From Acinetobacter johnsonii CIP 64.6 (GTDB taxonomy: Bacteria; Pseudomonadota; Gammaproteobacteria; Pseudomonadales; Moraxellaceae), in contig NZ_KB849235.1 of NCBI RefSeq assembly GCF_000368045.1, positions 61,643 to 77,107 on the forward strand: a stretch of 15,465 bases of DNA. Reading direction: 5' to 3'. The position numbers and the translations under genes are program-made. The notes beneath the pieces are model-generated. The model ran no database searches, was not told the origin of the DNA, and saw nothing but the letters and a program-made list of their open reading frames with translations. Below are positions 2,138 to 15,344 of this stretch, piece by piece. The number at the start of each line of letters is the position of its first letter. Position 1 is the stretch's first letter.

Positions 2138-2138
2138 A

Positions 2139-3626
2139 TCAATTCCCCGAATTGAAAGAAGCATTGCCAATCAGTTTGACCGCCCAAAATGATGCAAGTG
2201 CTATAACGAAAGGTTTAATACCTGAAAAGAAGTCACAAAAAGGCTTCATAGGAAAAACAAAGCTCATTTCTTGTCCCATAAGATTTAGAGAAAGGTTTTC
2301 ATCTGGTGGACATTGAGCATTAAATTTTGCAATTGAAAAAGGCGTAAAAGGTACGTTAATTTCTTCAAATACTGGCTCTGGTTCTTCGGGCTGATCAGGT
2401 TCTTCTTTTGTCCAGTTTATCCAGTCACAGACAATACCTGCCCAGTCACAAAATGCAGGTAATTGTAATGAACCTGTACTTGTTCCCGTTGTTGTTTGAT
2501 TGCCCGTTACTGGGTCTGTTGTCGTTTCTGTTTTTGTTTCTGTCTCAGTTTTGGCTGATGTGTCGGGTGTTGTTACGTATCCCTCTACTGTTTTCTCACC
2601 GTCTGTTATTTTGTAATAACCTGATGGTTTATCAGATGTGGCATTTGTCGTTGGATTATCAAAAGCACGATCAACAGCTTCATTCATATCGTTAGCCGTA
2701 CCAATAGCAATTGTATTGCTTGAATCGTCTTGACCCTCACTAGCATCGAACAAATATGCAGCCTTTAATGCTTCAGCAATAGCAGTAGCCAAAGCAGGGT
2801 TATTTGATTCAAGAGCGTTTTTAAGTGCTTCTGTTAATTGTTCTTGAGTAACATCAATATTTTCGGGATTTGGTGAAGAAGGATTATAAGCGGGGTTTGG
2901 ATAACGTACGGCATTGTATCCACACCCAACAGGTGAGCCATCTTTATAAACACAATAATAAAAATAATCAGGAGAAACAACGGGAGGGTTTTGCGCTGCG
3001 GTGACTACACAAGAAGCAGAAGGACCACAAATAGACGGATTTGATTTTGCACCTGCTAACGCAGCATCTAGGGGTTTTACGGCTTTTTTACCTTGCGAAT
3101 CCCAATAGTATTGCACACTAGGATCAGTTGGATCTTCAGACTCATATGGTTTTGTAACTTTTCCGCCTTCATCCATGACCCACCCGACACCATCAACTAG
3201 GGCTTGTACAGCAGCTCCACCGAGAAAAGAAGGAATAGAAGCTTTACCAGCGTGTTTAGCATAATCTTTAGCTTTACCTAAGCGATCAGCTAATGTTTTA
3301 GCAGCTTTACCAGTGTCCGCAGGTTGAGTTACTTTAGCGACAACCTCTGCTTTTCCACCACTTTCAAGAACACCAGAACGAGTAAGCATTTGTTCAACAT
3401 TAGTACGTTTTGTTCCCTCATTCATATAAATTCTTGCATCTAATTCGGCAAGGTTTCTTTTCATGCCTGCGTCATAGTTAGCCTGACTTTTAAAATTATT
3501 CTGTAAGCGTTTTAATGACTGTGCAGGCGTGTCATTGCGTGGGTTTGCAGGCAAGTCAGATGCATAAGTGGTTATGCTGAAAAAACAAGCCAAAGTGCAA
3601 AACAAAAAACGAAAATTATTAACCAT
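2139..3626 (-). CDS. g3p-like adsorption / minor coat protein (495 aa from the internal start)
   Basis: Signal-peptide-like start MVNNFRFLFCTLACFFSITTYA at 3626, preceded by AGGGGGA 8 nt upstream. Thr/Glu-rich low-complexity linker (TSAKTETETKTETTTDPVTGNQTTTGTSTGS), then an acidic PEEPEP stretch and a hydrophobic C-terminal anchor (FVIALASFWAVKLIG). It sits directly after the coat-gene terminator, as in Ff phages. Confidence 0.6.
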   Translation of the reverse strand: MVNNFRFLFCTLACFFSITTYASDLPANPRNDTPAQSLKRLQNNFKSQANYDAGMKRNLAELDARIYMNEGTKRTNVEQMLTRSGVLESGGKAEVVAKVTQPADTGKAAKTLADRLGKAKDYAKHAGKASIPSFLGGAAVQALVDGVGWVMDEGGKVTKPYESEDPTDPSVQYYWDSQGKKAVKPLDAALAGAKSNPSICGPSASCVVTAAQNPPVVSPDYFYYCVYKDGSPVGCGYNAVRYPNPAYNPSSPNPENIDVTQEQLTEALKNALESNNPALATAIAEALKAAYLFDASEGQDDSSNTIAIGTANDMNEAVDRAFDNPTTNATSDKPSGYYKITDGEKTVEGYVTTPDTSAKTETETKTETTTDPVTGNQTTTGTSTGSLQLPAFCDWAGIVCDWINWTKEEPDQPEEPEPVFEEINVPFTPFSIAKFNAQCPPDENLSLNLMGQEMSFVFPMKPFCDFFSGIKPFVIALASFWAVKLIGNASFNSGN

Positions 3627-3642
3627 CCCATATATCCCCCTA

Positions 3643-3696
3643 TAAAAAAGGCTCGACATGTCCGATCCGTAGGTCGGCAGTCGAGCCTTTTTTTTA
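3643..3696 (-). terminator. rho-independent terminator after the major coat gene
   Basis: AGGCTCGAC (3649-3657) pairs with GTCGAGCCT (3680-3688). A runs and T runs flank it on both sides. It lies between the coat-gene stop (3703) and the g3p-like start. Confidence 0.6.
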
Positions 3697-3702
3697 TTTA
3701 AA

Positions 3703-3921
3703 TTAAAGTGCTCGGCGGATCAACTTCCAACCTTTAATCGCAATCAGTACTGTTAAAATCGCACCACCTACAACAGCAATTGGTGCCATTAAAGCAGTAA
3801 TTGCAGATGCATCAGCTTTAACAGCGCCATCTTCAGCCATTGCCAAAACTGGTGCTAGTGCAACAGATGCAACTACAGCTTTTTGAGCTAGACTTAATTT
3901 TTTGTTTTCTACAGTTTTCAT
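3703..3921 (-). CDS. major coat protein (g8p-like), 72-aa precursor
   Basis: Internal ATG at 3921 with GGAGA 6 nt upstream. Signal peptide MKTVENKKLSLAQKAVVASVALAPVLAMA. The mature ~43 aa has an acidic N-terminus (EDGAVKAD), a hydrophobic core and a basic C-terminus (KGWKLIRRAL). Confidence 0.8.
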   Translation of the reverse strand: MKTVENKKLSLAQKAVVASVALAPVLAMAEDGAVKADASAITALMAPIAVVGGAILTVLIAIKGWKLIRRAL

Positions 3922-3934
3922 GACATTTCTCCAG

Positions 3935-4108
3935 TCATTTAAGTAATTGACCGATTTTTTTATAGCCCCATGCAAGACCCAAAACAGCAAGAATTGCAGT
4001 ACAAACTAAATAAGCATCGGACGTTGATAGTTCGGGTAATACTCCCGATTGAACAACCCATGTTGTGCATGTGTTTTCTATAAGTTCAGCGCAGACATAG
4101 GTCGTCAT
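3935..4108 (-). CDS. 57-aa membrane micro-protein, candidate minor coat protein (g9p/g7p position)
   Basis: Hand translation gives MTTYVCAELIENTCTTWVVQSGVLPELSTSDAYLVCTAILAVLGLAWGYKKIGQLLK: a C-terminal TM helix plus a basic tail. A GGGGG run lies 7 nt upstream of the ATG. The stop lies in the coat-gene RBS region. Confidence 0.45.
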   Translation of the reverse strand: MTTYVCAELIENTCTTWVVQSGVLPELSTSDAYLVCTAILAVLGLAWGYKKIGQLLK

Positions 4109-4111
4109 TCT

Positions 4112-4222
4112 TTAGCCCCCACATTTCGTCATGTGAAAAGCAATATTGTTTTTATGCATTAAGTTGAAGCACTTAGGACATTCGCGGATGTCGCTTCCAA
4201 ATAACACGTATTTGATGTTCAT
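4112..4222 (-). CDS. 36-aa Cys/His micro-protein (hypothetical)
   Basis: Hand translation gives MNIKYVLFGSDIRECPKCFNLMHKNNIAFHMTKCGG (CxxC ... HxxxC). The ATG lies 2 nt after the ssb-like stop and AAGG lies 7 nt upstream. It fills the gap before the next micro-ORF exactly. Confidence 0.35.
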   Translation of the reverse strand: MNIKYVLFGSDIRECPKCFNLMHKNNIAFHMTKCGG

Positions 4223-4224
4223 AC

Positions 4225-4518
4225 TTAGACCTTCGGTGGAAGAATCACGTTGGTAAGCACTTGCTTGGTGCTACGACCTGTAGACACTAGATCAAGTTCT
4301 AAAGTCGCTTCGAACGGGAATTTACGCCCTTGTAACTGGACTAAATTACGTGAATCTTGCCATTTAAATTCGGCAGCACCCTGCCCAACCGCATTGCCTT
4401 GAGAGGTGTCCATAGGGATAAGAGCAAAGAGCGTGACGTGGTCATAATGACGGCCGTCTTCTGACTTCCAATCCGTTGATTTTGCGCCAACTAAAGTAAC
4501 TTTCATTTGTTGTGACAT
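4225..4518 (-). CDS. putative ssDNA-binding protein (g5p/RstB position)
   Basis: 97-aa ORF immediately downstream of the replication initiator, matching inovirus g5p in size and position. No motif recognised with certainty. Confidence 0.5.
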   Translation of the reverse strand: MSQQMKVTLVGAKSTDWKSEDGRHYDHVTLFALIPMDTSQGNAVGQGAAEFKWQDSRNLVQLQGRKFPFEATLELDLVSTGRSTKQVLTNVILPPKV

Positions 4519-4521
4519 TGT

Positions 4522-5688
4522 TTACATCCTCATAGCAGTAAGTGTTAAGTGCTCTAACCGTTTGGGAATAGCCAACGGATCAGAACAAGAAATAATGTTA
4601 ATAAGTTCTTCAGGTTCAAAAACTTTCTTAAATACGTTGATATATTTGCCGTATTGTTTTTTGATAATTTCTAAAGCAGCGTGTGCATTGATTGAAGCTG
4701 CCTTTTTCATGGTTTCGATACGTTCAGGCTGTATATCTTCTGAGAGCATTTGAAAGCATGGATATGCAGCAATAAAATATTCAGAAGGTGACAAAAGCAT
4801 GGTGAACGGCAAAATACGGTCACGTGACTTAAACTCTACTTCAGCACGTTGCCAGTTATCATCTGGATCGCCCTCTGCCCGACCCTTTTCGTACAGTCGT
4901 AAATACTTACCTGATTCACGTGAGCCGATATTAAGAGTACGACCCCGACCGTTTGGACGTTTCCAATTGCCTTTATGCTCTACGTTCGGAGCACGGTTTC
5001 CGTTTTGGAATCCTCCCATGCCATCCATCATGTTTCCCCAGTCAACATTGATACGTTTTCCGTCAAAATCATCATGAGCAATGTCTACACGAGTTAATTT
5101 TCCACGTGTTGCAACCGTTGTCAGGAATGTATAAAGGCGTTGTTCCCAACCCTCTTTGGCCATTGAGCAGCCACGACCCGAAAGCATGACTAGGTATGTG
5201 TTTCGTTGACCGCCAACGCAGACAAATCCGCACTTATCGCCAATTTCAAACGAGCTTTGGTACATATTTTTCTTGCCTTTATCGACAAGGGTTAGCTGTA
5301 ATCCGAAGATGTGCTCTATATGTTTTTCAATTTCTAGAGCCATTGCGAAATTTAATTCTGTTTCATTGATGCTTTGATCATCATTGAGCGCATTTACAAA
5401 CTTGTGGTCTAAAGTGCCACAGCTATCAGTAAAGTTGACCCAGTCAATGACTGCAATTTGATTATCAGCAGGTAAACGGCATTGAACTTGTTTAGCCCCA
5501 CGTGAAGTCATGACCATATGTAGATGAGGAACTGCGAATGGACGCTCAAAAGGCAAAGGCAGATCGGCATCTTTCAAATGGGAGTGCATGGATTCGAATT
5601 CGGTTACCCCCATCTTATTAATGGGGGTATCTAAAAATCCCATTCCCCACGTACAAACTTGTGGTATTGATTGTTTTTTGTTCAACAT
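4522..5688 (-). CDS. rolling-circle replication initiation protein (RstA / Rep_trans-like)
   Basis: 388 aa. Contains RVDIAHDDFDG and GKYLRLYEKG, which I recognise as the R-x-Y-D/E-K signature of the Rep_trans/RstA family. It is the first large gene of the leftward operon. Confidence 0.75.
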   Translation of the reverse strand: MLNKKQSIPQVCTWGMGFLDTPINKMGVTEFESMHSHLKDADLPLPFERPFAVPHLHMVMTSRGAKQVQCRLPADNQIAVIDWVNFTDSCGTLDHKFVNALNDDQSINETELNFAMALEIEKHIEHIFGLQLTLVDKGKKNMYQSSFEIGDKCGFVCVGGQRNTYLVMLSGRGCSMAKEGWEQRLYTFLTTVATRGKLTRVDIAHDDFDGKRINVDWGNMMDGMGGFQNGNRAPNVEHKGNWKRPNGRGRTLNIGSRESGKYLRLYEKGRAEGDPDDNWQRAEVEFKSRDRILPFTMLLSPSEYFIAAYPCFQMLSEDIQPERIETMKKAASINAHAALEIIKKQYGKYINVFKKVFEPEELINIISCSDPLAIPKRLEHLTLTAMRM

Positions 5689-5906
5689 TATTCAATCCCC
5701 ATATCACGCATGATGTCGTTTTCTTGTTTTAGTGAATCGCAGTACTCAGCAACTTTTGCAGAACGATAGCCCCAGTGCCCCATTACCATTTCAATATGGA
5801 AAAGTACCTTTTCAGAGTCATAAGCAGGATTTCCACCCATGATCAGTTGGCACGCATCATCGAAGATGATTTTTGAGACGGTTTCAAAAGCTTGTTCTGT
5901 TGTCAT
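5688..5906 (-). CDS. hypothetical phage protein (72 aa), first gene of the leftward operon
   Basis: AGGTG lies 5 nt upstream of the ATG at 5906. Its stop overlaps the rep ATG (TAATG at 5686-5690). Confidence 0.5.
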   Translation of the reverse strand: MTTEQAFETVSKIIFDDACQLIMGGNPAYDSEKVLFHIEMVMGHWGYRSAKVAEYCDSLKQENDIMRDMGIE

Positions 5907-5919
5907 ATAGCACCTGAAA

Positions 5920-6000
5920 GTATACTGGTATACCCTAATTCGCTAATCGTACATAGGTATACCAGTATACGCAAGGATATTTGTATATAAACGTATACAA
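5920..6000. promoter_or_regulatory. divergent promoter/operator region with GTATAC-core palindromes
   Basis: GTATACTGGTATACC (5920-5934) and its exact reverse complement GGTATACCAGTATAC (5956-5970). A third site, TTGTATA-N6-TATACAA, is at 5981-6000. Candidate leftward promoter: TTGCGT (complement of 5969-5974), 17-nt spacer, TACGAT (complement of 5946-5951); an operator arm fills the spacer. Confidence 0.55.
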
Positions 6001-6027
6001 TATTTTAATTTAGTACAGGAGAGTGAA

Positions 6028-6222
6028 ATGGCTCAGACAGTAAAACTGAACAAATGGGAGCAGGAAGTGCTTGAAGCTAGGCTTAATTATTTAAATAAAA
6101 AGCTAGTAATGAATGGATTTAGAACACTTAAATCAGAAAGCGAGATAGTACACAAAATCATTGAAATGACGATCAACAAGGTCGACATTGACCAAGATGG
6201 AAACTTAAGATTAAAAAACTAA
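6028..6222 (+). CDS. small putative RHH-type transcriptional regulator (phage repressor candidate)
   Basis: AGGAGAG RBS at 6017-6023. 64 aa with a beta-strand/helix/helix pattern (TVKL / KWEQEVLEARLNYLNKK / SESEIVHKIIEMTI). It is divergent from the rep operon, as rstR is in CTXphi. Confidence 0.5.
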   Translation: MAQTVKLNKWEQEVLEARLNYLNKKLVMNGFRTLKSESEIVHKIIEMTINKVDIDQDGNLRLKN

Positions 6223-6254
6223 TAATTTATGTCGATCCTGATTACTAAATAAAA

Positions 6255-6280
6255 AAAGGGCTATATGCCCTTTTCCTTTT
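6255..6280 (+). terminator. rho-independent terminator after the regulator gene
   Basis: AAAGGGC-TATAT-GCCCTTT stem-loop followed by TCCTTTTT. Confidence 0.5.
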
Positions 6281-6288
6281 TGCGCTCG

Positions 6289-6317
6289 ATGTCGCATAAC
6301 GTAATTTTATGTTAAAT
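6289..6317 (+). other. dif-like XerC/XerD recombination site
   Basis: ATGTCGCATAA-CGTAATT-TTATGTTAAAT. The right arm is identical to the canonical XerD arm TTATGTTAAAT of E. coli dif. The left arm is close to xxTxCGCATAA XerC arms. The central region is 7 nt rather than 6. Confidence 0.5.
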
Positions 6318-6450
6318 TGAGTACATGATACGTTAAGTTCATAGATCTCTATGCTTAACCTAAAATCAATCACTTATATAAAATAATATTTCACATTGAG
6401 TTCACTTATGTTTATATTTTATTTACTTCATAAAGTTCTTGGTAGTTAGA

Positions 6451-7788
6451 ATGTTTGTCGTAAAAACAATTAAAATTTCAAAAAATTATTCAAATCAAAA
6501 TCACATAGTTCTACTGTTTGATACTTCAGCTACAGTACCTTGTCTCTATCCTTTACTCTATTCTACAACTGTCCTGCGATTTCAAAGTATTGCCACACAA
6601 CAATCAGACATGTTGGCACTTAAGTTTTGGTATGAATTTTGGTATCAGAAATATTCAACTTTGTTCTGTGAATCATTTTTTTCCTCCAAATATGAACCTG
6701 AGATTTTTTTGAATGAAATCGATAACTTTATTGTTTTCTTAGAAAATAATAAAAAATTAGAAACAAATTTGATTCGACTTCGATCAAATATTGAGACTAA
6801 CTATATGACCATTACACAGCGTTTGCGGTCAGTGTTTAAGTACTTCGGGTATCTTTTAGATGGATACTGGAACATACGCTATCAAGATATTAAAATCAAA
6901 GAGCTAACAAATCGTAGGAAAAAGATAGATTTGTTCTTAATGAACAAAAAAAAGATTTTTAGTAAATTTTCTAAACGTAGTTTAACTGTAAAAAGTAATA
7001 TTAATCATAATTTTAAAAGTTTAACCAATGAAATGGTGGTTATGCTTTATAAAATTATTCGTCCAGATCAGGCGGCTAATATTAATAAAGACAATCCATT
7101 CTCAACAAAATCACATCAACTTCGAAACTTTCTGATTGTGCATCTTATGATGAACTACGGTTTGCGGGTGGGTGAATTAATGCTACTCACAAAAAGATCG
7201 ATAAAAAAATCAATCAATTCTGATTCATATAGTCTCATAGTAACCAATACGGATGATGAACATGATTCCAGACAGAGAAAGCCTAGCATAAAAAATGAGC
7301 AATCTTACAGGGTTATAAAACTAGATAGCATGGATTATAAGTTTTTGATGTTGTATATGGAAAAGATAAGGAATCTTAATGATTCAGATATCTTGTTTAC
7401 ATCACTGAAACCGCCCTACTCCCCGCTGAGCTATTCGTCTATTAATGCGATTTTTAAGGTGATAGAGCAAGTTTTTAGGACCTTACATCCTATATATTTT
7501 GATGATATAAATATAGAATCGATTCAAAAGTTTACCCCTCATGTATGTCGTCATACATGGGCTTATATCACTTTGGCTTTTGCTATAAAAAAGTATCGAA
7601 ACGAAAGTGCATCTCCGCTAACTCAAAGCAATGATGAAATTATGCAAAAAGCACAAGAAAATCTACGTGTCTTAGGTGGTTGGAGTGCTAACAGCATAAT
7701 GCCAAGCTACTATGCAAAACGATTTATTGTCGATAGTGCCAATCTTATAAATTTGCAGCGTATATCGCAAGAATTATGGGAATTATAA
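6451..7788 (+). CDS. tyrosine recombinase 1 (Tn554 TnpA-like?), 445 aa from the first ATG
   Basis: Catalytic signature is visible: GLRVGEL (Arg), HVCRHTW (HxxR), LGGWS...SYY (Trp/Tyr). The ~230-aa N-terminal region is unassigned. Very AT-rich. The track ORF begins at TTG 6439. Confidence 0.8.
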   Translation: MFVVKTIKISKNYSNQNHIVLLFDTSATVPCLYPLLYSTTVLRFQSIATQQSDMLALKFWYEFWYQKYSTLFCESFFSSKYEPEIFLNEIDNFIVFLENNKKLETNLIRLRSNIETNYMTITQRLRSVFKYFGYLLDGYWNIRYQDIKIKELTNRRKKIDLFLMNKKKIFSKFSKRSLTVKSNINHNFKSLTNEMVVMLYKIIRPDQAANINKDNPFSTKSHQLRNFLIVHLMMNYGLRVGELMLLTKRSIKKSINSDSYSLIVTNTDDEHDSRQRKPSIKNEQSYRVIKLDSMDYKFLMLYMEKIRNLNDSDILFTSLKPPYSPLSYSSINAIFKVIEQVFRTLHPIYFDDINIESIQKFTPHVCRHTWAYITLAFAIKKYRNESASPLTQSNDEIMQKAQENLRVLGGWSANSIMPSYYAKRFIVDSANLINLQRISQELWEL

Positions 7789-7791
7789 AAA

Positions 7792-9342
7792 ATGAAGCAA
7801 TTTGAACTTTTTGATGATTTTCATGAGCAGCATTTCATATCAATCTTTAATGATCACCAGACGATTGCTCTTCAAGGTATGAGTAAAAAAATACCAAAAA
7901 TTGTTAGATTTTTAATTACAGATAAATTTGATGATAATTTTATCAATTCAGCAAATACTATTTGGAAATTTTATTATTCAGGCCAGACCGAGAATATTGA
8001 TTTTTCTAAACTTTCTGAAAATGAAACTACTTTACTTAAATTTTTTCTGATTTCATTTATTCAAAAAAATACGCCATCCCATTTGAGTAAAAAGTTTCAT
8101 ACTTTTAATTTTCTAATAAATCATCTAAAAAATAATGAATTAGAATTTAGTTACGCAAACTTAAAAAAATTATTGATAGAAATTGCACCTCTAGAAAATC
8201 ATCAAAATACTTATGCACATATAAAATTTTTATTGAAACTACTAATTTTAGAAGATTTTCCCAACTTTGATATAGAAGATGATTATGAACTGGAGTTTAT
8301 TCCTAGACCTAAATCTTTTAATTCAAATTTATTCTATCAAGAATATGAAGATTCTATTGATTACCCACTTATTTCAATGATTCAACAAGGTTTTATCAAA
8401 TTAAACCAAGTAATTAAAGATGATTTTAAACACATTGATAAACAAACACTACTTTACTCATCAATACTTGGTTTGGTGTATGTAACTGGGCTTAGACCTG
8501 TCCAATTAGCTAAGCTAGCTGTTGAAGATATAAAAATAGATACCACACGTACGATAGATCAATTCCATCGTTATAGCATATTAATCCCATATGCTAAACA
8601 AGCTAGATATGTACATGAAAAGATAGCAATTAAATTACCAGAAGAAGTTGCTAAAATCATCATTACTTATATCGAAAGATATAACTTAAATCTAAAAGAT
8701 AAGTTATTTGATTTAGGAGAAAATTCTGCATGCTTTTGCTCAAAAGTGATTAATACACAATTATTTGATTTTGCTCCTAAAGCCTACAGAGAAGCTGTAC
8801 TTGCAGGTGACATGATAAAACAAAAATATTCTTTTTCTGATTTTAGGCATCATGTCGGCTATAGTTTGGCAATGGCAGGATCTTCTGCTGAGGAAATTGC
8901 ATATATCTTAGGTCATTCTTCAGTGGTAACAGCTAGGCATTATATTTTCTCTACACCAGAGCTAGCTCAAATTAGAGCTCAAGCACTTGGAAATAATTCC
9001 TTGTACAAACAAATGATAGCTATGCTTCTCACTGGAAGGTTGATTTATAAGAAAGATTGGCATGGAAAAAAAGTATTAGGAAATATTGGTAGTAAAATTC
9101 ATTATGATATAGGTGGGTGTTCATATGAAGACAAATGTCTATTTCAACCTGTTCGCAATTGTTATGGTTGTATGTATTTCCATCCCTTTATAGATGCTAA
9201 TCACAGGAATGTGCTAGAAAGTATCCAAAATGAAATTAATGATTTGATCAAACTGTCAGATGGTATAGGGGCGAATTCAAACATGAGGTGCGACAGTTTG
9301 AAAAGTCTTATGATAATCAACAAGCTGAGCAAATTTCTCTAA
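7792..9342 (+). CDS. tyrosine recombinase 2 (Tn554 TnpB-like?), 3' end interrupted by an IS
   Basis: GLRPVQL (Arg), SDFRHH (Arg-His box with the first His replaced), LGHSSVVTARHY (His/Tyr), then a Cys cluster GGCSYEDKC...NCYGCMYFHP. Native sequence ends at 9269. Codons 9270-9342 (ANSNMRCDSLKSLMIINKLSKFL) read through into the IS. Confidence 0.8.
   Translation: MKQFELFDDFHEQHFISIFNDHQTIALQGMSKKIPKIVRFLITDKFDDNFINSANTIWKFYYSGQTENIDFSKLSENETTLLKFFLISFIQKNTPSHLSKKFHTFNFLINHLKNNELEFSYANLKKLLIEIAPLENHQNTYAHIKFLLKLLILEDFPNFDIEDDYELEFIPRPKSFNSNLFYQEYEDSIDYPLISMIQQGFIKLNQVIKDDFKHIDKQTLLYSSILGLVYVTGLRPVQLAKLAVEDIKIDTTRTIDQFHRYSILIPYAKQARYVHEKIAIKLPEEVAKIIITYIERYNLNLKDKLFDLGENSACFCSKVINTQLFDFAPKAYREAVLAGDMIKQKYSFSDFRHHVGYSLAMAGSSAEEIAYILGHSSVVTARHYIFSTPELAQIRAQALGNNSLYKQMIAMLLTGRLIYKKDWHGKKVLGNIGSKIHYDIGGCSYEDKCLFQPVRNCYGCMYFHPFIDANHRNVLESIQNEINDLIKLSDGIGANSNMRCDSLKSLMIINKLSKFL
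9252..9280 (-). promoter_or_regulatory. possible outward hybrid promoter at the ISAba125-like end
   Basis: On the minus strand: TTGAAT (in the IS, 9275-9280), 17-nt spacer, GACAGT (flank, 9252-9257). The geometry matches the TTGAAT-17-TACAGT promoter I recall upstream of blaNDM-1. Confidence 0.3.
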
Positions 9343-10356
9343 TGGTGTAAGCCAATCTAACGCTTTTCTAGGACGAGTATTCAGTGACATGGCAACTTGA
9401 TTTAAATAATGCTGATCTGCCTGATTTAAATCAATCCCTTTAGGTAAATATTGCCTAATTAAACCATTCATATTTTCGCATGTGCCTTTTTGCCAGGGTG
9501 AATGTGGGTCACAGAAATATACATCTATGCCTAAATCTTCTTCAAGTATTTTATGTTCTGCCATCTCGCGTCCACGGTCATAGGTCAACGTTTTACGCAG
9601 TTCTGCAGGTAAATATTTCAGAGCTTCAGTTAAAGCCTTGCGCACTGATTCTGCCTTTGCATCAGGTAATGTTGCCAAGATACAGAGCCGTGTATTTCGT
9701 TCAATAAGTGTTGCTATCGAACTTTTATTGTCTTTACCTTTAATTAAATCAGCTTCCCAATGACCCGGTATTTTTCTTTCTTGAACTTCGGCTGGGCGCT
9801 CATGAATAGTTTTAATATCCTGTAATATAGAATCTTTTTTAGGTTCACCGTTAGCTTTTCGCTTTTTATTTTCATGACGCAGACAGGATAATAAGTCTTT
9901 TTTCAACTCACCCTTTGGTAATGCTCGTATCGTTGAATAAATCGTTGTATGGCTTACATTCATTGTTTGATCCAAATCAGGAAATGTCTTTAAACGTTTT
10001 GCTATTTGCTGAGGAGACCATAAACAACGGATCGCTTCAACAATAAATTTCCAGAGGATTGAATCGATTTTGAGTTTTCTGTGACCACGTCTACGTCTAG
10101 CGAAGGTGTTATCAGAAGCATATTGAGCTTGATAAACGTCATTGATGCTATTTCTTTTAAGCTCACGATAGATCGTACTAGGATGTCTTTTAATGAGTTC
10201 AGCAAATTTTCTGGCTGAAAAGCCTTCTTTTCTTGACTCAAGCATTAATGCAGTACGATCTTCAAAGTTAAGATGATGGTATGACAATTTTATATACTCC
10301 ATAAACCCTTTAAATTAATTAGGTGGTTTATGTCGCACTTCAAGTTTTACTCTGCC
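9270..10356 (-). mobile_element. IS30-family insertion sequence, ISAba125-like (1087 bp)
   Basis: Imperfect terminal inverted repeats GGCGAATTCAAACATGAGGTGCGACA (9270-) and GGCAGAGTAAAACTTGAAGTGCGACA (complement of -10356). AGG is duplicated at 9267-9269 and 10357-10359. The 1087-bp length and the end sequence ...GTTTGAATTCGCC fit ISAba125 as I remember it. Confidence 0.85.
9277..10302 (-). CDS. IS30-family transposase
   Basis: 341 aa. N-terminal HTH region (ARKFAELIKRHPSTIYRELKRN) and a DDE core region (GHWEADLI ... TYDRGREM ... NMNGLIRQYLPKG). The stop codon lies inside the terminal IR. Confidence 0.9.
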   Translation of the reverse strand: MEYIKLSYHHLNFEDRTALMLESRKEGFSARKFAELIKRHPSTIYRELKRNSINDVYQAQYASDNTFARRRRGHRKLKIDSILWKFIVEAIRCLWSPQQIAKRLKTFPDLDQTMNVSHTTIYSTIRALPKGELKKDLLSCLRHENKKRKANGEPKKDSILQDIKTIHERPAEVQERKIPGHWEADLIKGKDNKSSIATLIERNTRLCILATLPDAKAESVRKALTEALKYLPAELRKTLTYDRGREMAEHKILEEDLGIDVYFCDPHSPWQKGTCENMNGLIRQYLPKGIDLNQADQHYLNQVAMSLNTRPRKALDWLTPLEKFAQLVDYHKTFQTVAPHV

Positions 10357-10414
10357 AGGTCTTTATTTCAATAAAATTAAACAATTTAAACCACCAACTT
10401 ATCCGAACCCATAA
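10357..10414 (+). pseudogene. displaced 3' end of tyrosine recombinase 2
   Basis: Removing 9270-10359 joins GGT ATA GG to T CTT TAT TTC ... in frame. This gives ...GIGLYFNKIKQFKPPTYPNP-stop, with TAA at 10412-10414. Confidence 0.6.
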
Positions 10415-10621
10415 TTACAACCAAACCACCCTCAAGTTAATAATTTACACTTTCAAATAATTAGCACTATAAAAAACAAAAAAAATTAAGATAGTAAAAT
10501 ATATTTAACACGTTAAAATTCAAAAAACTCAACTTTATAAAAATACATACCCCTCACATCAAACCATTTTACACTAGTGGTTTTTTAAAATTAAAACATT
10601 TGAAATCATAACAACCTCTTC

Positions 10622-10780
10622 ATTGAAGGCTTAAGTCGTAAAATTGAAATTAGATGTTTTTGTATAGATCCAAGTGTTAAGTCATCATTACGGTTTTTAC
10701 GTACCACACCATGGGCACGTGAAAAAGTTGAAAGCTTATATTTGTATGTCTTACGTCAAAAAGCCAAACAAAAATCGTAG
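10622..10780 (+). pseudogene. 5'-truncated DUF2132/VF530-like gene remnant
   Basis: The frame is open from 10604 with no start codon. [40 protein letters not shown] matches my recollection of the C-terminal half of DUF2132 proteins (...RCF..DPS.KSSLKFLRKTPWAR.KVE.LYL). TAG at 10778-10780. Confidence 0.45.
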
Positions 10781-10829
10781 CTATCAAAACTCAGCATAAT
10801 ATTTTATACCAAACAGTAAACTAAACTTA

Positions 10830-10905
10830 TTGAATAGCCAATGATTTTGTAGACACCTTTTAATTGGTGGTGGGCTGCCACCACTCTCCTGGCAAAATTT
10901 AGTCT
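10830..10905 (+). repeat. 76-bp repeat, copy A (hairpin-containing)
   Basis: 68 of 76 positions are identical to 14242-14317 in direct orientation. Contains the hairpin GTGGTGG-GCTG-CCACCAC (10867-10884). Confidence 0.75.
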
Positions 10906-10993
10906 ATATCCCTATGGTTTATTTAAAAACTTATTTTCTATCTTTACTAGGCTCTATGATCAAAATCATACTGGCACTCAACACTGTAAATTT

Positions 10994-11025
10994 GAGAATG
11001 AATCTGTACGTACAGACTCATTCTC
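10994..11025. terminator. 32-bp palindrome between convergent genes (possible bidirectional terminator)
   Basis: GAGAATGAATCTGTAC / GTACAGACTCATTCTC, 15 of 16 positions paired. It lies 80 nt downstream of the butanediol dehydrogenase stop. No strong U-tract. Confidence 0.35.
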
Positions 11026-11103
11026 TATCGATAAAGATATTAGAAATAGCTACATAGAGTTTATTTCTAGCTTATTCAAATTAGTCGTTCAAATTAGGCT
11101 TTA

Positions 11104-12162
11104 CTACGGATGAACAATAATTTTTACAGCAGACTCATTATTATGAATCAGCGTTTCAAAGCCTTTAGAAACAAGATCATCTAATGCAATACGTTGGGTA
11201 ATAAAAGGTTCTAGATTAATCTTACCTTGCTCGACTAAACGGATGGTTTCCTGATGGTCATTGACATAAGCAATCGTTCCACGAATATCGAGCTCTTTCA
11301 TGACCACACTATGCACATTAATTGTGGCAGGATGGCTCCAAATCGAAACGATAACGACCACACCAGTTGGTTTCATCGCCGCCACCAGTGTATCCATGAC
11401 TTTATTAACACTACTACATTCAAAAGCGACATCAACACCACGGTCTTCCGTAATTTTCATCACTTCAGCGACCACATCAACCTTAGATGGATCTAGCACA
11501 TAATCTGCAACACCCGCTTCTATCGCTTTTTCTTTACGCTTTGCACTCAATTCAGTAATGATGACCGTGAGACCTTTAGCCTTTAAAATGGCTGATAAAA
11601 GTAAGCCTATAGGGCCTGCTCCACCAACCAGTGCTATATCGCCAGCTTTTGCACCACTTCTGACATAGGCATGATGACCGACAGATAAAGGTTCTATCAA
11701 TGCGGCCTGATCTAAGGGAATATCATTTGAAATAGGATGTACCCAACGTCGTTGAACTGCAATTTTATCAGAAAGACCGCCGCCACGTCCGCCTAAACCA
11801 ATAAAGTTCATATTTTTTGATAAATGATACTTATCATTCGGGCCAGTCGGGACATCATCCGCAATAATATAGGGTTCAACTACGACATGTTGTCCAATTT
11901 GGATATCGTCTACACCCTCACCAACTGCATAAACTACGCCTGAAAATTCATGTCCCATTGTTACAGGTGCAGATTCTCCCGAAATTGGATGTGGATGACC
12001 ACAAGGTGGAATAAAAATAGGGCCTTCCATGAATTCATGTAAATCTGTACCGCAAATACCGCACCATGCAACTTGAATTCCAACTGTGCCTGGAAGTACT
12101 TTCGGTTCAGGGATATCTTCAATTCGAATATCCCCTCGATCATAAAAACGAGCTGCTTTCAT
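11104..12162 (-). CDS. bdhA: (R,R)-2,3-butanediol dehydrogenase, Zn-dependent MDR family
   Basis: 352 aa. CGICGTDLHE zinc-ligand motif, GHEFSG, and the Rossmann motif LVGGAGPIGLL. It follows an acetoin-reductase gene and an E3 gene remnant, the usual aco-bud arrangement. Confidence 0.85.
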   Translation of the reverse strand: MKAARFYDRGDIRIEDIPEPKVLPGTVGIQVAWCGICGTDLHEFMEGPIFIPPCGHPHPISGESAPVTMGHEFSGVVYAVGEGVDDIQIGQHVVVEPYIIADDVPTGPNDKYHLSKNMNFIGLGGRGGGLSDKIAVQRRWVHPISNDIPLDQAALIEPLSVGHHAYVRSGAKAGDIALVGGAGPIGLLLSAILKAKGLTVIITELSAKRKEKAIEAGVADYVLDPSKVDVVAEVMKITEDRGVDVAFECSSVNKVMDTLVAAMKPTGVVVIVSIWSHPATINVHSVVMKELDIRGTIAYVNDHQETIRLVEQGKINLEPFITQRIALDDLVSKGFETLIHNNESAVKIIVHP

Positions 12163-12183
12163 TGTGTATTCCTCATGTTGATA

Positions 12184-12969
12184 TTAACGGTAAACCATTC
12201 CACCATCTGTCAAAATAGACTGACCTGTAATATAGTTTGCATCCTCGCTGGCTAAAAATGCAACTAATGCAGCCACGTCATCTGGTGTTTCAGCACGTCC
12301 TAAAGCAATACCATCTACATATTTTTTATACGTTTGACCAATTGGTGCACCTGTAATTTCAGAGAACCGCTGATCTATTTCGACCCACATGTCAGTACCA
12401 ACAACACCCGGACAATAACTATTTACAGTAATTTCAACACTGGCATATTCTTTAGCCGCAGCTTGCGTCAATGCACGAACTGCAAATTTAGTTGCCGAAT
12501 AAACACCGAGTAAAGCAAAGCCTTCATGACCTGCTATTGAGCATGCATTAATAATTTTTCCAGCCTGTTGGCGTTGTTTAAATTTATTTGCTGCGGCTTG
12601 AATCCCCCAAAGTACACCACCGACATTGATGTTTATAATTTGGTTAAATTCACTCGGCGTTACTTCTGCCAAAGCTTTGACTTGTGCAATACCTGCATTA
12701 TTAATCATGATATCAAAACCATTAAGTGTCGATTCTGCATGATTAATAGCGTCACTGATTTGTATTGAATCTGAAATATCCGCAATAAATGTGGTGGCTT
12801 TTACGCCAAAGGCTTCAACCTCTTGTTGAACAGTATTTAACTTTTCTTGGTGAAGATCGACCAATCCAATATGAACACCTTCTTGTGCTAAACGTAAGGC
12901 AATACCGCGTCCAATACCTTGTGCCGCACCCGTAATTAATGCAACTTTATTGTTTAAACCTCTAGGCAT
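12184..12969 (-). CDS. budC: acetoin reductase / meso- or (S,S)-butanediol dehydrogenase (classical SDR)
   Basis: 261 aa. TGAAQGIGRGIA cofactor motif, NNAG, and the catalytic YSATK. Confidence 0.8.
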   Translation of the reverse strand: MPRGLNNKVALITGAAQGIGRGIALRLAQEGVHIGLVDLHQEKLNTVQQEVEAFGVKATTFIADISDSIQISDAINHAESTLNGFDIMINNAGIAQVKALAEVTPSEFNQIININVGGVLWGIQAAANKFKQRQQAGKIINACSIAGHEGFALLGVYSATKFAVRALTQAAAKEYASVEITVNSYCPGVVGTDMWVEIDQRFSEITGAPIGQTYKKYVDGIALGRAETPDDVAALVAFLASEDANYITGQSILTDGGMVYR

Positions 12970-12980
12970 GTTGCGACTCC

Positions 12981-13266
12981 TTAAATATGGATTGCACGTT
13001 GCATCGCCGACAAGACCGACTCATGCATCGCCTCAGACAAAGTAGGATGAGGGAAAATGACCTGCGCCAAGCTTTCATCTGTAGCTTCTAGGTATTTCGC
13101 GATGGCAAACCCTTGAATGTGTTCGGTGACTTCATGTCCAACCATGTGAGCACCCAACAATTCACCTGTTTCCTGACTAAAAATGGTTTTAACAAATCCT
13201 GCGCTATCGCCCAAAGCCAATGCTTTACCATTCGCTTGTAAAGGAAACTTACCCACATTGATATTC
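12981..13266 (-). pseudogene. 3' fragment of a dihydrolipoamide dehydrogenase (E3, acoL/lpd-like) truncated by an IS
   Basis: GFVKTIFSQETGELLGAHMVGHEVTEHIQ ... FPHPTLSEAMHES is the C-terminal dimerisation domain of an E3 enzyme. The first 14 residues of the track ORF (13267-13307) are encoded by the IS end. Confidence 0.8.
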
Positions 13267-14054
13267 GGTGGTGTTTTAAAAAGTATGCTGACATTAAATG
13301 AAGCCATTATTGATGTAAAAGAAGGTTAAGTCGAAGGCTTTAAAATGGTTTTCAAGCTTTTTGGAGAAATTACAACTTCTTCTAAAACCACGCCTTATTC
13401 GATGCCTTATTTTGCAATTATTACCTTCAATTCCTACAGTAAAAAACTTACCAATACTTTGCTTGCAGTTTTTAAAAGCAGTGATGAAACTGTCCCAATG
13501 ATCACTTGCAATTCGGGTGTAGTGAATACCTAATTGTTTAAGCTTTGTCTTCAACCTTTGGACTGTAGCTAAATCTCTCTTACCCCAAACATAAGCAACA
13601 ATCTCACCTGTTTCTCGATGGTAAGCGTAAATAAGCCATTGTTTATTATTTTTATTTCCAACAAAAGTCCAGAATTCATCTACTTCGAGAGATTCATAAT
13701 GACTTTGTTTAGGCTGAATTTGATAGGCCGATTCAGTTAAAGTCCGTAAGACTTTACCGATACTAATGCGCTCAACTTCAGCGATATCTCGTATACCGCT
13801 GCCTCTGACCATTAACTGTAATATTTTACGAGTAATGCCAGAATTACATCCTAGATAGCTCAGAGCATGGTCACCAATAAACTGACGTTTGCAGTCTTTG
13901 CATTGGTAGTTCTGTTTCCCATCTACTTTGATGCCATTTTTCTTTATATTGTCACTGAGGCAGGTTGGACATTTGATTTCTAGAGTTATTTGCATTTCTC
14001 TATTTTATCAAAATTCAACCTGCTTTTTTTTAGCATACTTTTTGATACACCACC
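13267..14054 (-). mobile_element. IS1-family insertion sequence, ISAba3-like (788 bp)
   Basis: Terminal inverted repeats GGTGGTGTTTTAAAAAGTATGCTG (13267-) and GGTGGTGTATCAAAAAGTATGCTA (complement of -14054), 21/24 identical. The flanks (TTGATATTC / AAAACTTGA) show no target duplication. Confidence 0.8.
13294..13995 (-). CDS. IS1-family transposase (single ORF, ISAba3-like)
   Basis: 233 aa. N-terminal zinc finger CPTCLS...CKDCKRQF, an HTH region, and a DDE core (EVDEFWTF ... DHWDSF). Confidence 0.85.
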   Translation of the reverse strand: MQITLEIKCPTCLSDNIKKNGIKVDGKQNYQCKDCKRQFIGDHALSYLGCNSGITRKILQLMVRGSGIRDIAEVERISIGKVLRTLTESAYQIQPKQSHYESLEVDEFWTFVGNKNNKQWLIYAYHRETGEIVAYVWGKRDLATVQRLKTKLKQLGIHYTRIASDHWDSFITAFKNCKQSIGKFFTVGIEGNNCKIRHRIRRGFRRSCNFSKKLENHFKAFDLTFFYINNGFI

Positions 14055-14079
14055 AAAACTTGAAGTAATCTTCAGTTTA

Positions 14080-14117
14080 GCCAAGTTGTGCTGACTCAAA
14101 CCAACTTGGCATTTTTT
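14080..14117 (+). terminator. orphan rho-independent terminator
   Basis: GCCAAGTTG (14080-14088) pairs with CAACTTGGC (14102-14110), followed by ATTTTTT. No gene remains upstream because the IS end lies at 14054. Confidence 0.5.
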
Positions 14118-14241
14118 AATTGAAAGTCCATATTATTGCCCAACCATGATGAGAACGAAAAATAAAGTTAGCCTTATTCTGATTACATTAGACAGATTTT
14201 TACCATCTGTACTACTTTACATCGTCCTCAATTTGGACACT

Positions 14242-14317
14242 TTGAATAGCCACTGATTTTGTAGACACCTTTTAATTAGTGGTGGACTGCCACTACTCTC
14301 CTAGACAAATTTAGCCT
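14242..14317 (+). repeat. 76-bp repeat, copy B
   Basis: Direct copy of 10830-10905. The hairpin GTGGTGG-ACTG-CCACTAC is retained; the single stem change converts G-C to G-T(U). Confidence 0.75.
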
Positions 14318-14608
14318 TTTCCTAAAACCTTTTTAGTAGGAAAATATGCATTCATAGCTAGGTTCATGAACCAAATATTTTATAAGTTATCACTTTAGTG
14401 CGCTAAGTAATTAAATTTATTGTTTATTAAACATAAATTTAATTGTGAACTAGATTCTAGGTGAACATAAGTTAAATAGCATATCCAAGACTGTGGCCTA
14501 CGCAACTCAGTTGGTGCCACAGCTCAGCAAAGTGAATCTGTAAAATTATATTCACGTTGCTGAGTATCCTAATGAACATAATATACGTTATGCCGAAATC
14601 CGTGAGCT

Positions 14609-14758
14609 TTATAATTGTTCATCTGTAAAAATATCAGAAATGATAATAAAAATTGCAGCAATAGTAACAGCAACACAGAAAGCCAATAAAAAATTCTCAA
14701 AAGTAAAATATTGAGTATATTTAAAATTAGGATCAGAAATAAAAACAGTCTCAAACAT
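14609..14758 (-). CDS. possible 49-aa membrane peptide (alternative frame to track ORF 14569..14766)
   Basis: ATG at 14758 with AGGGTG 5-6 nt upstream. Hand translation gives MFETVFISDPNFKYTQYFTFENFLLAFCVAVTIAAIFIIISDIFTDEQL. The track ORF starts at GTG and is a poly-Leu/Phe reading of AT-rich DNA. Confidence 0.25.
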   Translation of the reverse strand: MFETVFISDPNFKYTQYFTFENFLLAFCVAVTIAAIFIIISDIFTDEQL

Positions 14759-15343: not shown

Positions 15344-15344
15344 A

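Follow-up and report, generated by a model that had tools for sequence, protein, structure and literature searches.

Which element owns a pair of adjacent tyrosine recombinase genes that lie beside a filamentous prophage? The question is raised by a locus of Acinetobacter johnsonii CIP 64.6 that we analyzed as a single stretch of 15,465 nucleotides (hereafter the window). An initial annotation had offered two answers: that the phage integrates by means of the pair, or that the pair is an independent site-specific element. We found that the recombinases belong not to the phage but to a "three-integrase" GInt-type island, which in the window extends from a dif-like site at 6289–6317 to a degenerate XerD-arm repeat at 14466–14477 and is now non-functional. 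With considerable confidence, we read the two genes, here called A and B, as the first half of an A-B-C-D recombination operon at the left end of an island of the GInt type (Tn6571 family), defunct in this genome. By itself, the window is ordinary and holds the defunct remains of an island of known kind.

The two genes are real. They are open reading frames on the same strand and 3 nt apart, the stop codon of A ending at 7788 and the ATG of B starting at 7792. Gene A (ginA-like; 6451–7788, plus strand) encodes a tyrosine recombinase (PF00589) and appears intact: the catalytic set R / H-x-x-R / W / Y is complete, and the catalytic columns are conserved between genera. Comparison with relatives placed its start at the ATG at 6451, giving 445 aa, and not at the TTG at 6439; the exact protein was found in 350 indexed blocks of the assembly collection. 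Gene B (ginB-like; 7792–9269, plus strand) retains the first 492 of 527 codons, and its 492 aa are 100% identical to the 527-aa protein P0001. The Pfam model Phage_integrase matched above threshold only the C-terminal halves of the proteins, residues 208–376 of A (31 bits) and 216–387 of B (43 bits), so that the ~210 N-terminal residues of each are left unassigned by Pfam, as had been noted. The N-terminal regions are no new domain: over ~350 columns, which take in the core-binding domain, a structure model of B (mean pLDDT 60, C-terminal third poor) aligned with Cre, Tn1549 Int, and XerH. The unusual S-D-F-R of B and its terminal Cys cluster were also correctly recognized in the initial annotation: aligned to XerD, S-D-F-R falls on H-x-x-R, the residues of B being R235, K269, S349 (replacing His-II), R352, H375, and Y384, and the cluster consists of C443/C449/C457/C460. 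The profile of B gave, against PDB sequences, marginal matches to XerD alone (E 0.2), and its use was limited to placing the catalytic residues. The block looks compositionally foreign, as proposed, with a windowed G+C of 24–35% over 6000–9250 versus 40–46% in the phage block (A, 31.6%; B, 29.1%; phage, 39.8%).

Given their position beside dif and their weak matches to Xer models, A and B might be housekeeping recombinases of the XerC/XerD type, an outcome that would have made the pair routine. Their scores of 22 and 16 bits stand against equivalog cut-offs of 335 (TIGR02224) and 330 (TIGR02225), and the module is accessory, not present as one copy per genome: it is found on 4 of 80 metagenome contigs with an exact Acinetobacter-type dif, and this variant occurs in 37 of 5426 E. 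coli genomes. We attach practically no probability to the housekeeping reading.

Adjacency in the window argues for the pair being the integration module of the filamentous phage, and the Aliivibrio plasmid pAWOD_1 also has tandem satellite-phage units beside gene A. Against this, a survey of the pair with or without the inovirus found it phage-free in other genomes: in four loci (L031–L033 and L035), a 99.8% identical module lies at dif without a phage, in the order T6SS genes, OmpA-domain gene, dif, A. The module is present in more than 20 Acinetobacter loci whose left flanks are unrelated, A and B lie on the strand opposite to the phage and differ from it in G+C, and the phage ends on its right in a hybrid site of the Xer type whose XerC arm is phage-side sequence. 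The reading as a phage module is thus rejected as very improbable. Compared with the phage collection at megablast level, the window gave no match.

The junction itself accounts for the neighborhood. The left end of the island (attL; 6289–6317, plus strand) is the dif-like site ATGTCGCATAA-CGTAATT-TTATGTTAAAT, a unique match with 0.01 expected by chance, whose XerD arm occupies 6307–6317; homology to other loci starts at 6288–6307. Its XerC arm and 7-nt spacer are phage-side sequence, and phage-free sister genomes have the canonical ..CGTATAA-TGTATA-TTATGTTAAAT at the same position. Filamentous phages likewise integrate at dif, and attL is a hybrid that arose when the inovirus entered the dif bordering the island. 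The inovirus adjoins the recombinases because both entered the same dif; it is a separate element that arrived later by means of the host Xer system.

The missing remainder of the operon is explained by an insertion sequence. A complete ISAba125 of the IS30 family (9270–10356, minus strand; 1087 bp) interrupts B after codon 492, and the last 24 codons of the 516-aa open reading frame are IS sequence. The element has 26-nt terminal inverted repeats, AGG at both flanks, and a transposase gene at 9277–10302 on the minus strand (NF033563, 1.8e-100), and it is 99.9% identical to Acinetobacter plasmid copies. Homology of B to all intact relatives ends precisely at 9269, and the DNA beyond ISAba125 is not the 3' end of B; the initial annotation had missed this cut. 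It had also reported that no third gene is visible. There are indeed no open reading frames of at least 50 aa in 10357–11100, but the relatives have genes C and D, and the third gene is missing from the window because of an ISAba125-associated deletion, not because the element lacks one.

This was seen by comparison with locus L034, which matches positions 1–10364 at 99.99% identity and in which B resumes past the IS; positions 9266–15465 match the L034 contig at 100% and there adjoin a second IS copy in the same orientation. In the sister genome, the IS sits at the identical codon of B and is followed by ~10.9 kb comprising the remainder of B, then C, D, and cargo (regulators, SRAP-umuDC, and an acetyltransferase), and the second ISAba125 copy adjoins an alcohol dehydrogenase gene. 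This stretch between two directly repeated copies is absent from the window. The window is as expected if the two copies had recombined or if the assembly had collapsed over them; the central junction could therefore be such a collapse of identical IS copies and not a true deletion. A 266-bp segment of 24% G+C (10357–10622), which flanks the second ISAba125 in the sister genome and here forms the far side of the deletion, is confined to same-species loci and uninformative on the boundary. With C and D absent and B truncated, the window copy should be inactive.

In intact relatives, the operon consists of four genes encoding A of 445 aa, B of 527 aa, C of 771–787 aa, and D of 145 aa, and is colinear and homologous with the ginABCD genes of a GInt in E. 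coli. BLASTP comparison with ECs_3512, ECs_3511, and ECs_3510 of E. coli Sakai matched A to GinA at 8e-13 over 422 aa, B to GinB at 1e-5, and C to GinC at 4e-6, and the best Sakai match of each of the three was the gene at the same operon position; D gave no BLASTP match to GinD. Supplementary file 10 of Idola et al. (2023, PMC10214605) counts Sakai ginC and ginD among the GInt orthologues. The likeness to the experimentally studied Pseudomonas GInts is indirect and runs through this Sakai element, which Idola et al. found with PSI-BLAST; the accessions of C and D were absent from the supplementary entries listed, under both SE and GInt. The operon of three recombinase-fold genes and a small gene that characterizes GInts is seen in the intact relatives, and the window keeps A and 492 codons of B. 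GInts further have a 3' end rich in A+T and are flanked by imperfect direct repeats of 10–17 nt (PMC5385486); both features were found here, together with site-specific insertion and the homology of A, B, and C to the matching gin genes. All four gin genes are needed for GInt excision and integration (Bardaji et al. 2017, PMC5385486).

The initial annotation had associated the pair with Tn554-type and RIT (recombinase-in-trio) elements. The association was a useful lead toward multi-recombinase elements, and a relative on Cupriavidus necator pHG1, with A, B, and then small genes only, fits it and is also located beside a dif-like site. The closest tested match is nevertheless ginABCD of GInts. 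The intact relatives have a third recombinase-fold gene of 771–787 aa that is absent from the tnpA-tnpB-tnpC set of Tn554, a distinction made by gene content, and a tblastn search of plasmids with B returned no Firmicute among the ten commonest genera listed. RIT elements, set apart by their description, have three recombinase genes of similar size, long terminal inverted repeats, and no fourth gene, whereas we found four very unequal genes and short (about 23–28 nt), imperfect inverted repeats. A transposon of the Tn554 family (TnpA/TnpB/TnpC) or a RIT element is hence a highly unlikely identity for the island.

The surroundings of gene A point to where such islands insert. In every examined locus with upstream DNA, A starts 130–310 bp from a dif or dif-like site whose XerD arm faces the gene; this holds for all such Acinetobacter loci and for E. 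coli IncHI plasmids, Aliivibrio, a Pseudomonas aeruginosa plasmid, Vibrio cholerae, V. navarrensis, and Citrobacter. In each case the module is on the XerD side. None of the 80 metagenome contigs had the module on the XerC side. Between site and gene lies the island leader (6318–6450, plus strand), with a conserved subterminal motif TTAAGTTCATAG (6333–6344) and related copies TGAGTTCACTTA (6397) and TTACTTCATAAAG (6423), which are candidate recombinase-binding or promoter elements. In Acinetobacter, Aliivibrio, P. aeruginosa, V. cholerae, V. navarrensis, Citrobacter, and plasmids of E. coli, the motif follows the XerD arm at a distance of 16–20 bp, and its strict form occurs once per locus.

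The opposite end was harder to place. A search for a second complete dif-like site (at most three mismatches), and then for the XerD arm alone, found no downstream attR within 7–10 kb at most loci, and the true right end emerged only through comparison of E. coli K-12 with an island-bearing strain. That comparison gave attB, attL, and attR and located the insertion within the XerD arm, with dif left intact and the right end a degenerate XerD arm without a XerC arm. In the window, the corresponding right end (attR; 14359–14477, plus strand) consists of TAGGTTCATGAACC at 14359, the inverted motif TGTGAACTAGATT at 14444, and the core CATAAGTTAAAT at 14466–14477, a degenerate XerD arm in surroundings of 24% G+C. 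Core and inverted motif recur beside yneL, where the E. coli island has its right junction, and in three further loci (L014, L025, and L027), and the flank past 14477 is homologous to the dif flank of L013 and L085. The two island ends form imperfect inverted repeats (~23–28 nt; 6307–6345 and 14444–14477 in the window) with a conserved GTTCAT, and the two junctions form imperfect direct repeats, TTATGTTAAAT at attL (6307) versus ATAAGTTAAAT at attR (14467); the same is seen in E. coli against the empty site of K-12. The view of an independent, site-specific multi-recombinase element was on the right track, but the element does have inverted repeats, albeit imperfect, and the block ends at 14477 and not at 10620. 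Locus L025 has the leader of an older island fused to the right-end core of another with nothing between them, which is the arrangement that repeated insertion into dif predicts.

Two other boundaries were considered and rejected. An inverted dif-like site at 14569–14598 resembles a boundary in the style of pdif modules, but the attR core is at 14466–14477 and the intervening DNA is host flank. A site with a 7-nt spacer in L013 (3130–3158) has the same kind of XerC arm as the phage junction of the window and, by this resemblance, more likely derives from a phage or an IMEX.

Within the island, the right part consists of a fragment (10623–13307) carrying the 3' part of a DUF2132 gene, a Zn-dependent alcohol dehydrogenase gene, a short-chain dehydrogenase gene, and the 3' part of a dihydrolipoamide-dehydrogenase-like gene. 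The DUF2132 name is that of the initial annotation, and the gene fragment had no Pfam match. An IS1-family element (13264–14057, minus strand) truncates the dehydrogenase gene. In other Acinetobacter, the genes of this fragment are the native right flank of dif; that they lie within the island in the window and in the host flank in L013 and L085 is a point against the island model.

From these junctions, the XerD half of the chromosomal dif appears to be the insertion target of this island family. We moderately favor, by a little over even chances, a broader reading: a widespread GInt-type clade attaches at the XerD arm of dif, or of the dif-like sites of plasmids, in the chromosomes of Acinetobacter, Vibrio, Aliivibrio, Photobacterium, Citrobacter, and E. 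coli and in IncHI and Pseudomonas plasmids, rebuilding an intact dif at the left junction, so that islands accumulate on the XerD side, and Xer-dependent phages and IS1202-like elements on the XerC side. In the proposed mechanism, A and B, for which C and D would be obligatory partners, would join the two imperfect inverted-repeat ends into a circle, with ..GGTGAA-CATAAGTTAAAT-TGAGTACATG.. as the predicted circular junction in Acinetobacter. The circle would then recombine with the XerD arm of dif or of a plasmid dif-like site, crossing over in or beside GTTAAAT; a crossover at this position would turn the right junction into xATAAGTTAAAT and retain a complete dif, and therefore chromosome-dimer resolution, at the left. 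We infer the role of A–D as catalysts and the exact cleavage positions from homology with GInts and from the junction sequences.

The same junctions can be read as those of an IMEX moved by host XerC/XerD at dif, with A–D controlling Xer, stabilizing the island, resolving multimers, or acting together with XerD. The chromosomal attL is a perfect dif, the XerD arm is identical at 11 of 11 positions between genera when the proteins of the element fall to 33% identity, plasmid copies sit at pdif-like sites with varying spacers, and pAWOD_1 has an inverted dif-like site 11 kb downstream that is a possible alternative end. IMEXs, however, have no recombinase of their own and two junctions of the XerC-XerD type, whereas the attR of five independent elements lacks a XerC arm and has a degenerate XerD arm. 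The imperfect inverted repeats at the ends are specific to the element and contain a conserved subterminal motif, like those of GInts and SEs, and the homologous gin genes are all needed for GInt integration and excision (PMC5385486). We consider an Xer-driven IMEX unlikely, if the least improbable of the rivals. The exact conservation of the XerD arm could be a sign of host XerD involvement also for a GInt-type island, and the island recombinases may even need XerD, bound at the arm, as a partner.

Of the recombination sites in proteobacterial chromosomes, dif is the most conserved, and our results indicate that a non-Xer recombinase system targets it and yet preserves it, which bears on how islands share an indispensable site. 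Recombinase pairs and filamentous prophages lie side by side since both use dif, by different routes. The comparison also provided an attachment-site model for a GInt clade, with attB, attL, attR, a predicted circular junction, and subterminal GTTCAT motifs. Islands linked to dif carry CBASS, Gabija-like, HipBA, and UmuDC genes in E. coli, Vibrio, and Acinetobacter. If true, a dif-targeting clade would explain the hipA-ydeT defense-island hotspot of E. coli and the Acinetobacter "plasticity region" with its undefined element termini; Idola et al. (2023, PMC10214605) described core genes of this kind in Acinetobacter plasticity regions and could not define the termini. The literature searched, to which subscription-only papers did not belong, contained no paper connecting GInts with dif.

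Several known systems share parts of this design. With IMEXs (the CTX, VGJ, and TLC phages and the gonococcal genetic island) and the pdif modules of Acinetobacter, the island has in common residence at dif, a functional dif left behind, and arrays at the same site, but IMEXs lack a recombinase and use an XerC-XerD attP, whereas the island encodes its own recombinases and lacks a XerC arm at its right junction. Tn554, compared by description, also combines an ordinary and a large tyrosine recombinase with a small helper and inserts site-specifically, but it has no large third protein and occurs in Firmicutes. Like the island, SEs have a set of four recombination genes at their left end and termini that are imperfect inverted repeats; they are also target-specific and lack transfer genes (PMC10214605). 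Gene order and termini set the island apart from them: their arrangement is intA-tfp-intB-srap, with the non-catalytic protein (Tfp) encoded by the second gene and not by the third, the island has A-B-C-D with the large gene in third place, and their published C/C' termini, for example TACACTAACGTGTCATGGTA, are unlike the XerD arm. The closest likeness is to GInts: a 5' operon of four genes in the same order, two catalytic recombinases, a large recombinase-fold third protein, and a small coiled-coil protein (PMC5385486; Hochhauser et al. 2023, PMC10121019), followed by cargo that often includes defense or stress genes (CBASS, Gabija-like, HipBA, and UmuDC), an AT-rich 3' end, and short imperfect direct repeats at both junctions. 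The dif-linked clade differs in its target, the XerD arm in place of an ABC-transporter gene or the end of ssb in described GInts; in a B protein with a conserved four-Cys cluster where Sakai GinB has C-x2-C only; in a C protein of 771–854 aa, versus 543 aa in Sakai, that keeps the candidate R, H-x-x-R-H, and Y; and in a D protein without BLASTP similarity to GinD, while the window copy has lost both C and D.

The closest complete genomes to parts of the window were CP037424, CP065666, CP121776 and UFRV01000006 (99.8–100% identity), and the plasmid matches to the recombinase module came from A. johnsonii. The window carries a minus-strand block resembling an inovirus (Zot at 666–1856, coat protein B at 3703–3990 and Rep_trans at 4522–5688), a dif-like site (6289–6317), gene A (6451–7788), gene B (from 7792), an IS30-family element (9270–10356) and, directly after the latter, a 266-bp stretch of 24% G+C. 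The remainder contains the 3' part of a small gene, named DUF2132 in the initial annotation and yielding no Pfam match, genes for a Zn-dependent alcohol dehydrogenase and a short-chain dehydrogenase, and the 3' part of a dihydrolipoamide-dehydrogenase-like gene. An IS1-family element (13264–14057) with 26-nt inverted repeats and a 233-aa transposase interrupts this last gene; an A. johnsonii plasmid carries a 100% identical copy of the element. A 76-nt direct repeat including a GGTGGTGGGCTGCCACCAC hairpin has copies at 10830–10905 and 14242–14317 (89% identical); in three comparison loci (L013, L023 and L025), further copies follow either the module or the DUF2132 gene, and the repeat may be an Acinetobacter intergenic repeat or terminator.

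Several features of A and B noted in the initial annotation were recovered: two ORFs separated by a 3-nt gap, recombinase domains restricted to the C-terminal halves, an S-D-F-R motif and a Cys cluster in B, and a low G+C content, which we measured across the block. The catalytic set of A (R, H-x-x-R, W and Y) is conserved from Acinetobacter to the GinA of E. coli O157 Sakai. In B, the catalytic residues are R235, K269, R352, H375 and Y384, with S349 at the His-II position. This position is mostly S, T or A in the aligned B/GinB proteins (A in Sakai GinB, M in the P. aeruginosa protein) and His in none of them; lack of His-II is therefore characteristic of the family rather than a sign of decay. 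The cysteines of B, C-x5-C-x7-C-x2-C, are kept throughout the dif-linked group. The AlphaFold model of B was of moderate confidence (mean pLDDT of 60), with residues 20–170 and 200–330 well predicted and the C-terminal third, Cys cluster included, unreliable. Since the Foldseek alignment of this model with Cre, Tn1549 integrase and XerH spans ~350 columns, the N-terminal region of B, previously left unassigned, is predicted to consist for the most part of the standard helical core-binding domain, with a small beta-strand unit in addition. On the Xer equivalog models, A and B scored ~300 bits below the cut-off, a shortfall that rules them out as Xer housekeeping recombinases.

The block had been read without noticing that an IS30-family element splits B. 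The element is 1087 bp long with 26-nt terminal inverted repeats, its transposase matches the IS30 model at 1.8e-100, and it is 99.9% identical to Acinetobacter plasmid copies, with >2000 plasmid records matching; from its length and its association with blaNDM contexts, we take it to be ISAba125. Codon 492 is the last of B before the break, the IS supplies the final 24 residues of the 516-aa ORF, and the match of every intact relative to B ends at 9269. The same IS, with an AGG target duplication, is found at the same B codon in UFRV01000006 (L034) and CP065666 (L036), where it is followed by the remainder of B, C, D and cargo. The third gene previously reported as absent is thus present, together with D, after the IS in these loci, and both are missing from the window across the ISAba125 junction. 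A directly repeated second copy of ISAba125 on the UFRV01000006 contig adjoins the alcohol dehydrogenase gene, and the 266-bp stretch that borders the IS in the window borders this copy too. Positions 1–10364 of the window match the first ISAba125 context of this contig at 99.99%, and positions 9266–15465 match the second at 100%. Because each half matches one IS context, the window is the exact product of recombination between the two copies; the stretch lost between them, ~10.9 kb, holds the 3' end of B, C, D, two helix-turn-helix genes, a 168-aa gene, SRAP-umuDC and an acetyltransferase. A collapse of the ISAba125 repeat during assembly would yield the same sequence as a real deletion, and the two are indistinguishable here.

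In uninterrupted relatives, A (445 aa), B (527 aa), C (771–787 aa) and D (145 aa) form a translationally coupled set of four genes. C shows a weak Phage_integrase match across its H-x-x-R...Y region, and D coiled-coil-type matches only. As the reference for the gin comparison we used the E. coli O157 Sakai element ECs_3512–3509, whose last two genes are listed as ginC and ginD orthologues (Idola et al., PMC10214605). The best BLASTP matches fell in conserved order: A to GinA (8e-13, 422 aa), B to GinB (1e-5) and C to GinC (4e-6). GInts have ginABCD at the 5' end, then cargo and then an AT-rich 3' end; their junctions are short imperfect direct repeats, and excision and integration need all four genes (PMC5385486). 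Because of the gene layout and the order-preserving matches to the Sakai gin genes, the architecture and homology of A–D are, to judge by sequence, those of a GInt.

Adjacency to the XerD arm of dif was universal in the loci examined. In all Acinetobacter loci with upstream DNA, A starts 133–150 bp past the end of a dif site whose XerD arm points towards the gene; its sequence agrees with the ADP1 dif (Carnoy and Roten). The adjacency persists despite A proteins diverging to 51% identity, similarity between the loci starts at dif, and two plasmid copies of the module have the same XerD arm with other spacers. Distant relatives (27–44% identity in B) keep the arrangement: E. coli IncHI plasmids have AGTGCGTATAA-CTAGGA-TTATGTTAAAT and AGTGCGCATAA-GATGGA-TTATGTTAAAT, a P. 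aeruginosa plasmid has a dif-like site with one mismatch in the XerD arm, and sites are found in Aliivibrio pAWOD_1, two V. cholerae contigs, V. navarrensis and two Citrobacter-type chromosomes, one with a canonical TGTATA dif. In all distant relatives, a motif TTA(A/G)GTTCAT(A/G), or AACTTCAT in some clades, lies 16–20 bp after the XerD arm, and a second GTTCAT-type copy lies near the start of A. Among a control set of 80 metagenome contigs with the exact 26-nt Acinetobacter-type dif, 4 contained the module, on the XerD side in 4/4, and in one of the others (L085) the site is empty, the DUF2132 gene lying 200 bp beyond dif. That the XerD arm is perfectly conserved is the strongest point for Xer involvement; in the main rival explanation, host XerCD moves the island or XerD acts as a partner.

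The junction sequences bear on this directly. E. coli Eco_24-2013 has a 17-kb island with A–D, regulators and a CBASS system between the hipA and yneL'-ydeT genes, the position of dif in K-12. The empty site (attB) of K-12 reads GGTGCGCATAA TGTATA TTATGTTAAAT CATGT CTGAGTG; the left junction (attL) has the same dif, then CATGT TGATTGTTAACTTACTTCATGAAC, and the right junction (attR) reads TCATGAACTAAATTTCCGCACAA CATAAGTTAAAT CGCAT CTGAGTG. The direct repeats that thus bound the island are imperfect and cover the XerD arm, while imperfect inverted repeats bearing the GTTCAT motif form the island ends. An intact dif is retained at the left junction, and no second exact XerD arm was found besides it in 44 kb around the locus. 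The TTATG and ATAAG differences stay each on their own side, and we therefore infer that the exchange took place in or to the right of GTTAAAT, where the exact cleavage points of island insertion would lie. An attR without an XerC arm and element-specific inverted repeats both argue against a purely Xer-driven element. By analogy with GInts, A and B would perform the recombination together with C and D, and the GTTCAT motifs are candidate accessory sites for these proteins.

The right-end core, preceded at 9 nt by the inverted motif, was found in four more places (the window, L027, L014 and L025). In the window, the right end (14444–14477) precedes a flank that contains a hairpin and shows homology to the dif flank in L013 and L085, and in L014 it defines a 10.1-kb island. 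In L025, an older second island has its leader fused immediately to the core, exactly as predicted by repeated insertion into a regenerated dif. L025 and L007 belong to one contig of Acinetobacter sp. NIPH 2699 with two tandem islands; in the second, the leader leads straight to codon 306 of B, an internal deletion. E. coli C122 (L170) has retained dif, a 174-bp island leader (8990–9174) and the attR core (17221–17253), the operon being replaced by IS elements and a group II intron; another degenerate dif-like sequence lies next to hipA (~4560), separated from the true dif by ~4.4 kb of other genes. The DUF2132-to-dehydrogenase fragment (10623–13307) is inside the island in the window and forms the native right flank of dif in L013 (3376–6094) and L085. 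Its identity to L013 is 94.5%, compared with 86% for the module, and the fragment may be cargo acquired from a former host through imprecise excision.

The proposal that the A–B pair is the integration module of the adjacent filamentous phage was refuted by phage-free loci (L031–L033 and L035). There, a module 99.8% identical from the XerD arm on directly follows a canonical dif, and the upstream side of dif holds type VI secretion (T6SS) genes and an OmpA-domain gene. In the window dif, ATGTCGCATAA-CGTAATT stands in place of the XerC arm and spacer and runs on into the phage, and 6289–6317 is a Xer-type hybrid junction. Given this junction and the phage-free loci, the phage therefore entered a pre-existing dif at the island edge. 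The dif-like site at this right phage junction has a 7-nt spacer and an XerC arm, GTCGCATAA, from the phage side. A partial second phage end (a 72-aa gene, a 64-aa gene and the site) lies upstream in L034 (2558–3271 and 3551 onward); the prophage is therefore part of an array, to which window bases 1–499 belong, and these are not host flank. An inverted dif-like site, TTTCGGCATAA-CGTATA-TTATGTTCATT, is located on the minus strand at 14569–14598, ~90 bp past the right end of the island. In the sister genome L028, a second, different inovirus (Rep_trans, DUF2523 and Zot; reverse complement 14300–20350) begins just beyond the window end, enclosed by two copies of a 136-bp unit made up of the hairpin and this inverted site.

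Other elements were also seen at these sites. In four unrelated replicons, ISNCY/IS1202-like transposase genes (HTH_23/28/29) abut the dif-like site before A on its XerC side (L001 4531–5856, L034/L036 734–2071, L039 2776–4122 and L166 3987–5390); IS1202-group elements are reported to target dif-like sites. V. cholerae L164 has a DUF3653 gene (4507–4935) on the XerC side of the dif before A; XafT, the Xer activation factor of TLC phage, belongs to the DUF3653 family, which suggests a TLC-type element beside the island. In Aliivibrio wodanis pAWOD_1 (L038, L162 and L163), 4–5 tandem satellite-phage-like units, each with Rep II/X, SSB, two small genes and a helix-turn-helix gene, adjoin the dif-like site near A; the 79-kb record holds the whole arrangement twice, by duplication or assembly artefact. 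Defence and stress modules are abundant in the island cargo: CBASS with HORMA and a TRIP13-like ATPase in E. coli (L169 28315–36376), a Gabija-like UvrD-helicase and TOPRIM/AAA pair in Aliivibrio (L038 11879–15491), HipA with a helix-turn-helix gene in Acinetobacter and V. cholerae (L004 8499–9982 and L164 12311–14474) and SRAP-UmuDC in the A. johnsonii type (L034 19267–21338).

Among known systems, SE elements differ in that the non-catalytic protein is the second gene and the published termini are unlike those of the window's island, while Tn554 is set apart by gene content, lacking the large third gene of the A–D operon. A distant A–B pair on C. necator pHG1 (L041, 4546–7452; B 21% identical) is followed by small genes only, with no large C, and sits 127 bp from a perfect dif-like site whose orientation is reversed, so that the XerC arm points towards the gene; it may be a Tn554-like relative also using dif-like sites. 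GInts were described in 2017 (PMC5385486) and are carriers of defence systems at several E. coli hotspots. The hipA–ydeT interval is hotspot 20, occupied in 62 of 783 genomes, in a study that leaves dif unmentioned (Hochhauser et al., PMC10121019), and related core genes in Acinetobacter sit in plasticity regions for which the authors were unable to define the termini (Idola et al., PMC10214605). We found no link between GInt-type elements and dif in open-access papers, and dif targeting by this island clade looks like a new variant, open to direct test. The window copy alone, an element partly misread in the initial annotation, is a decayed island of a known kind.
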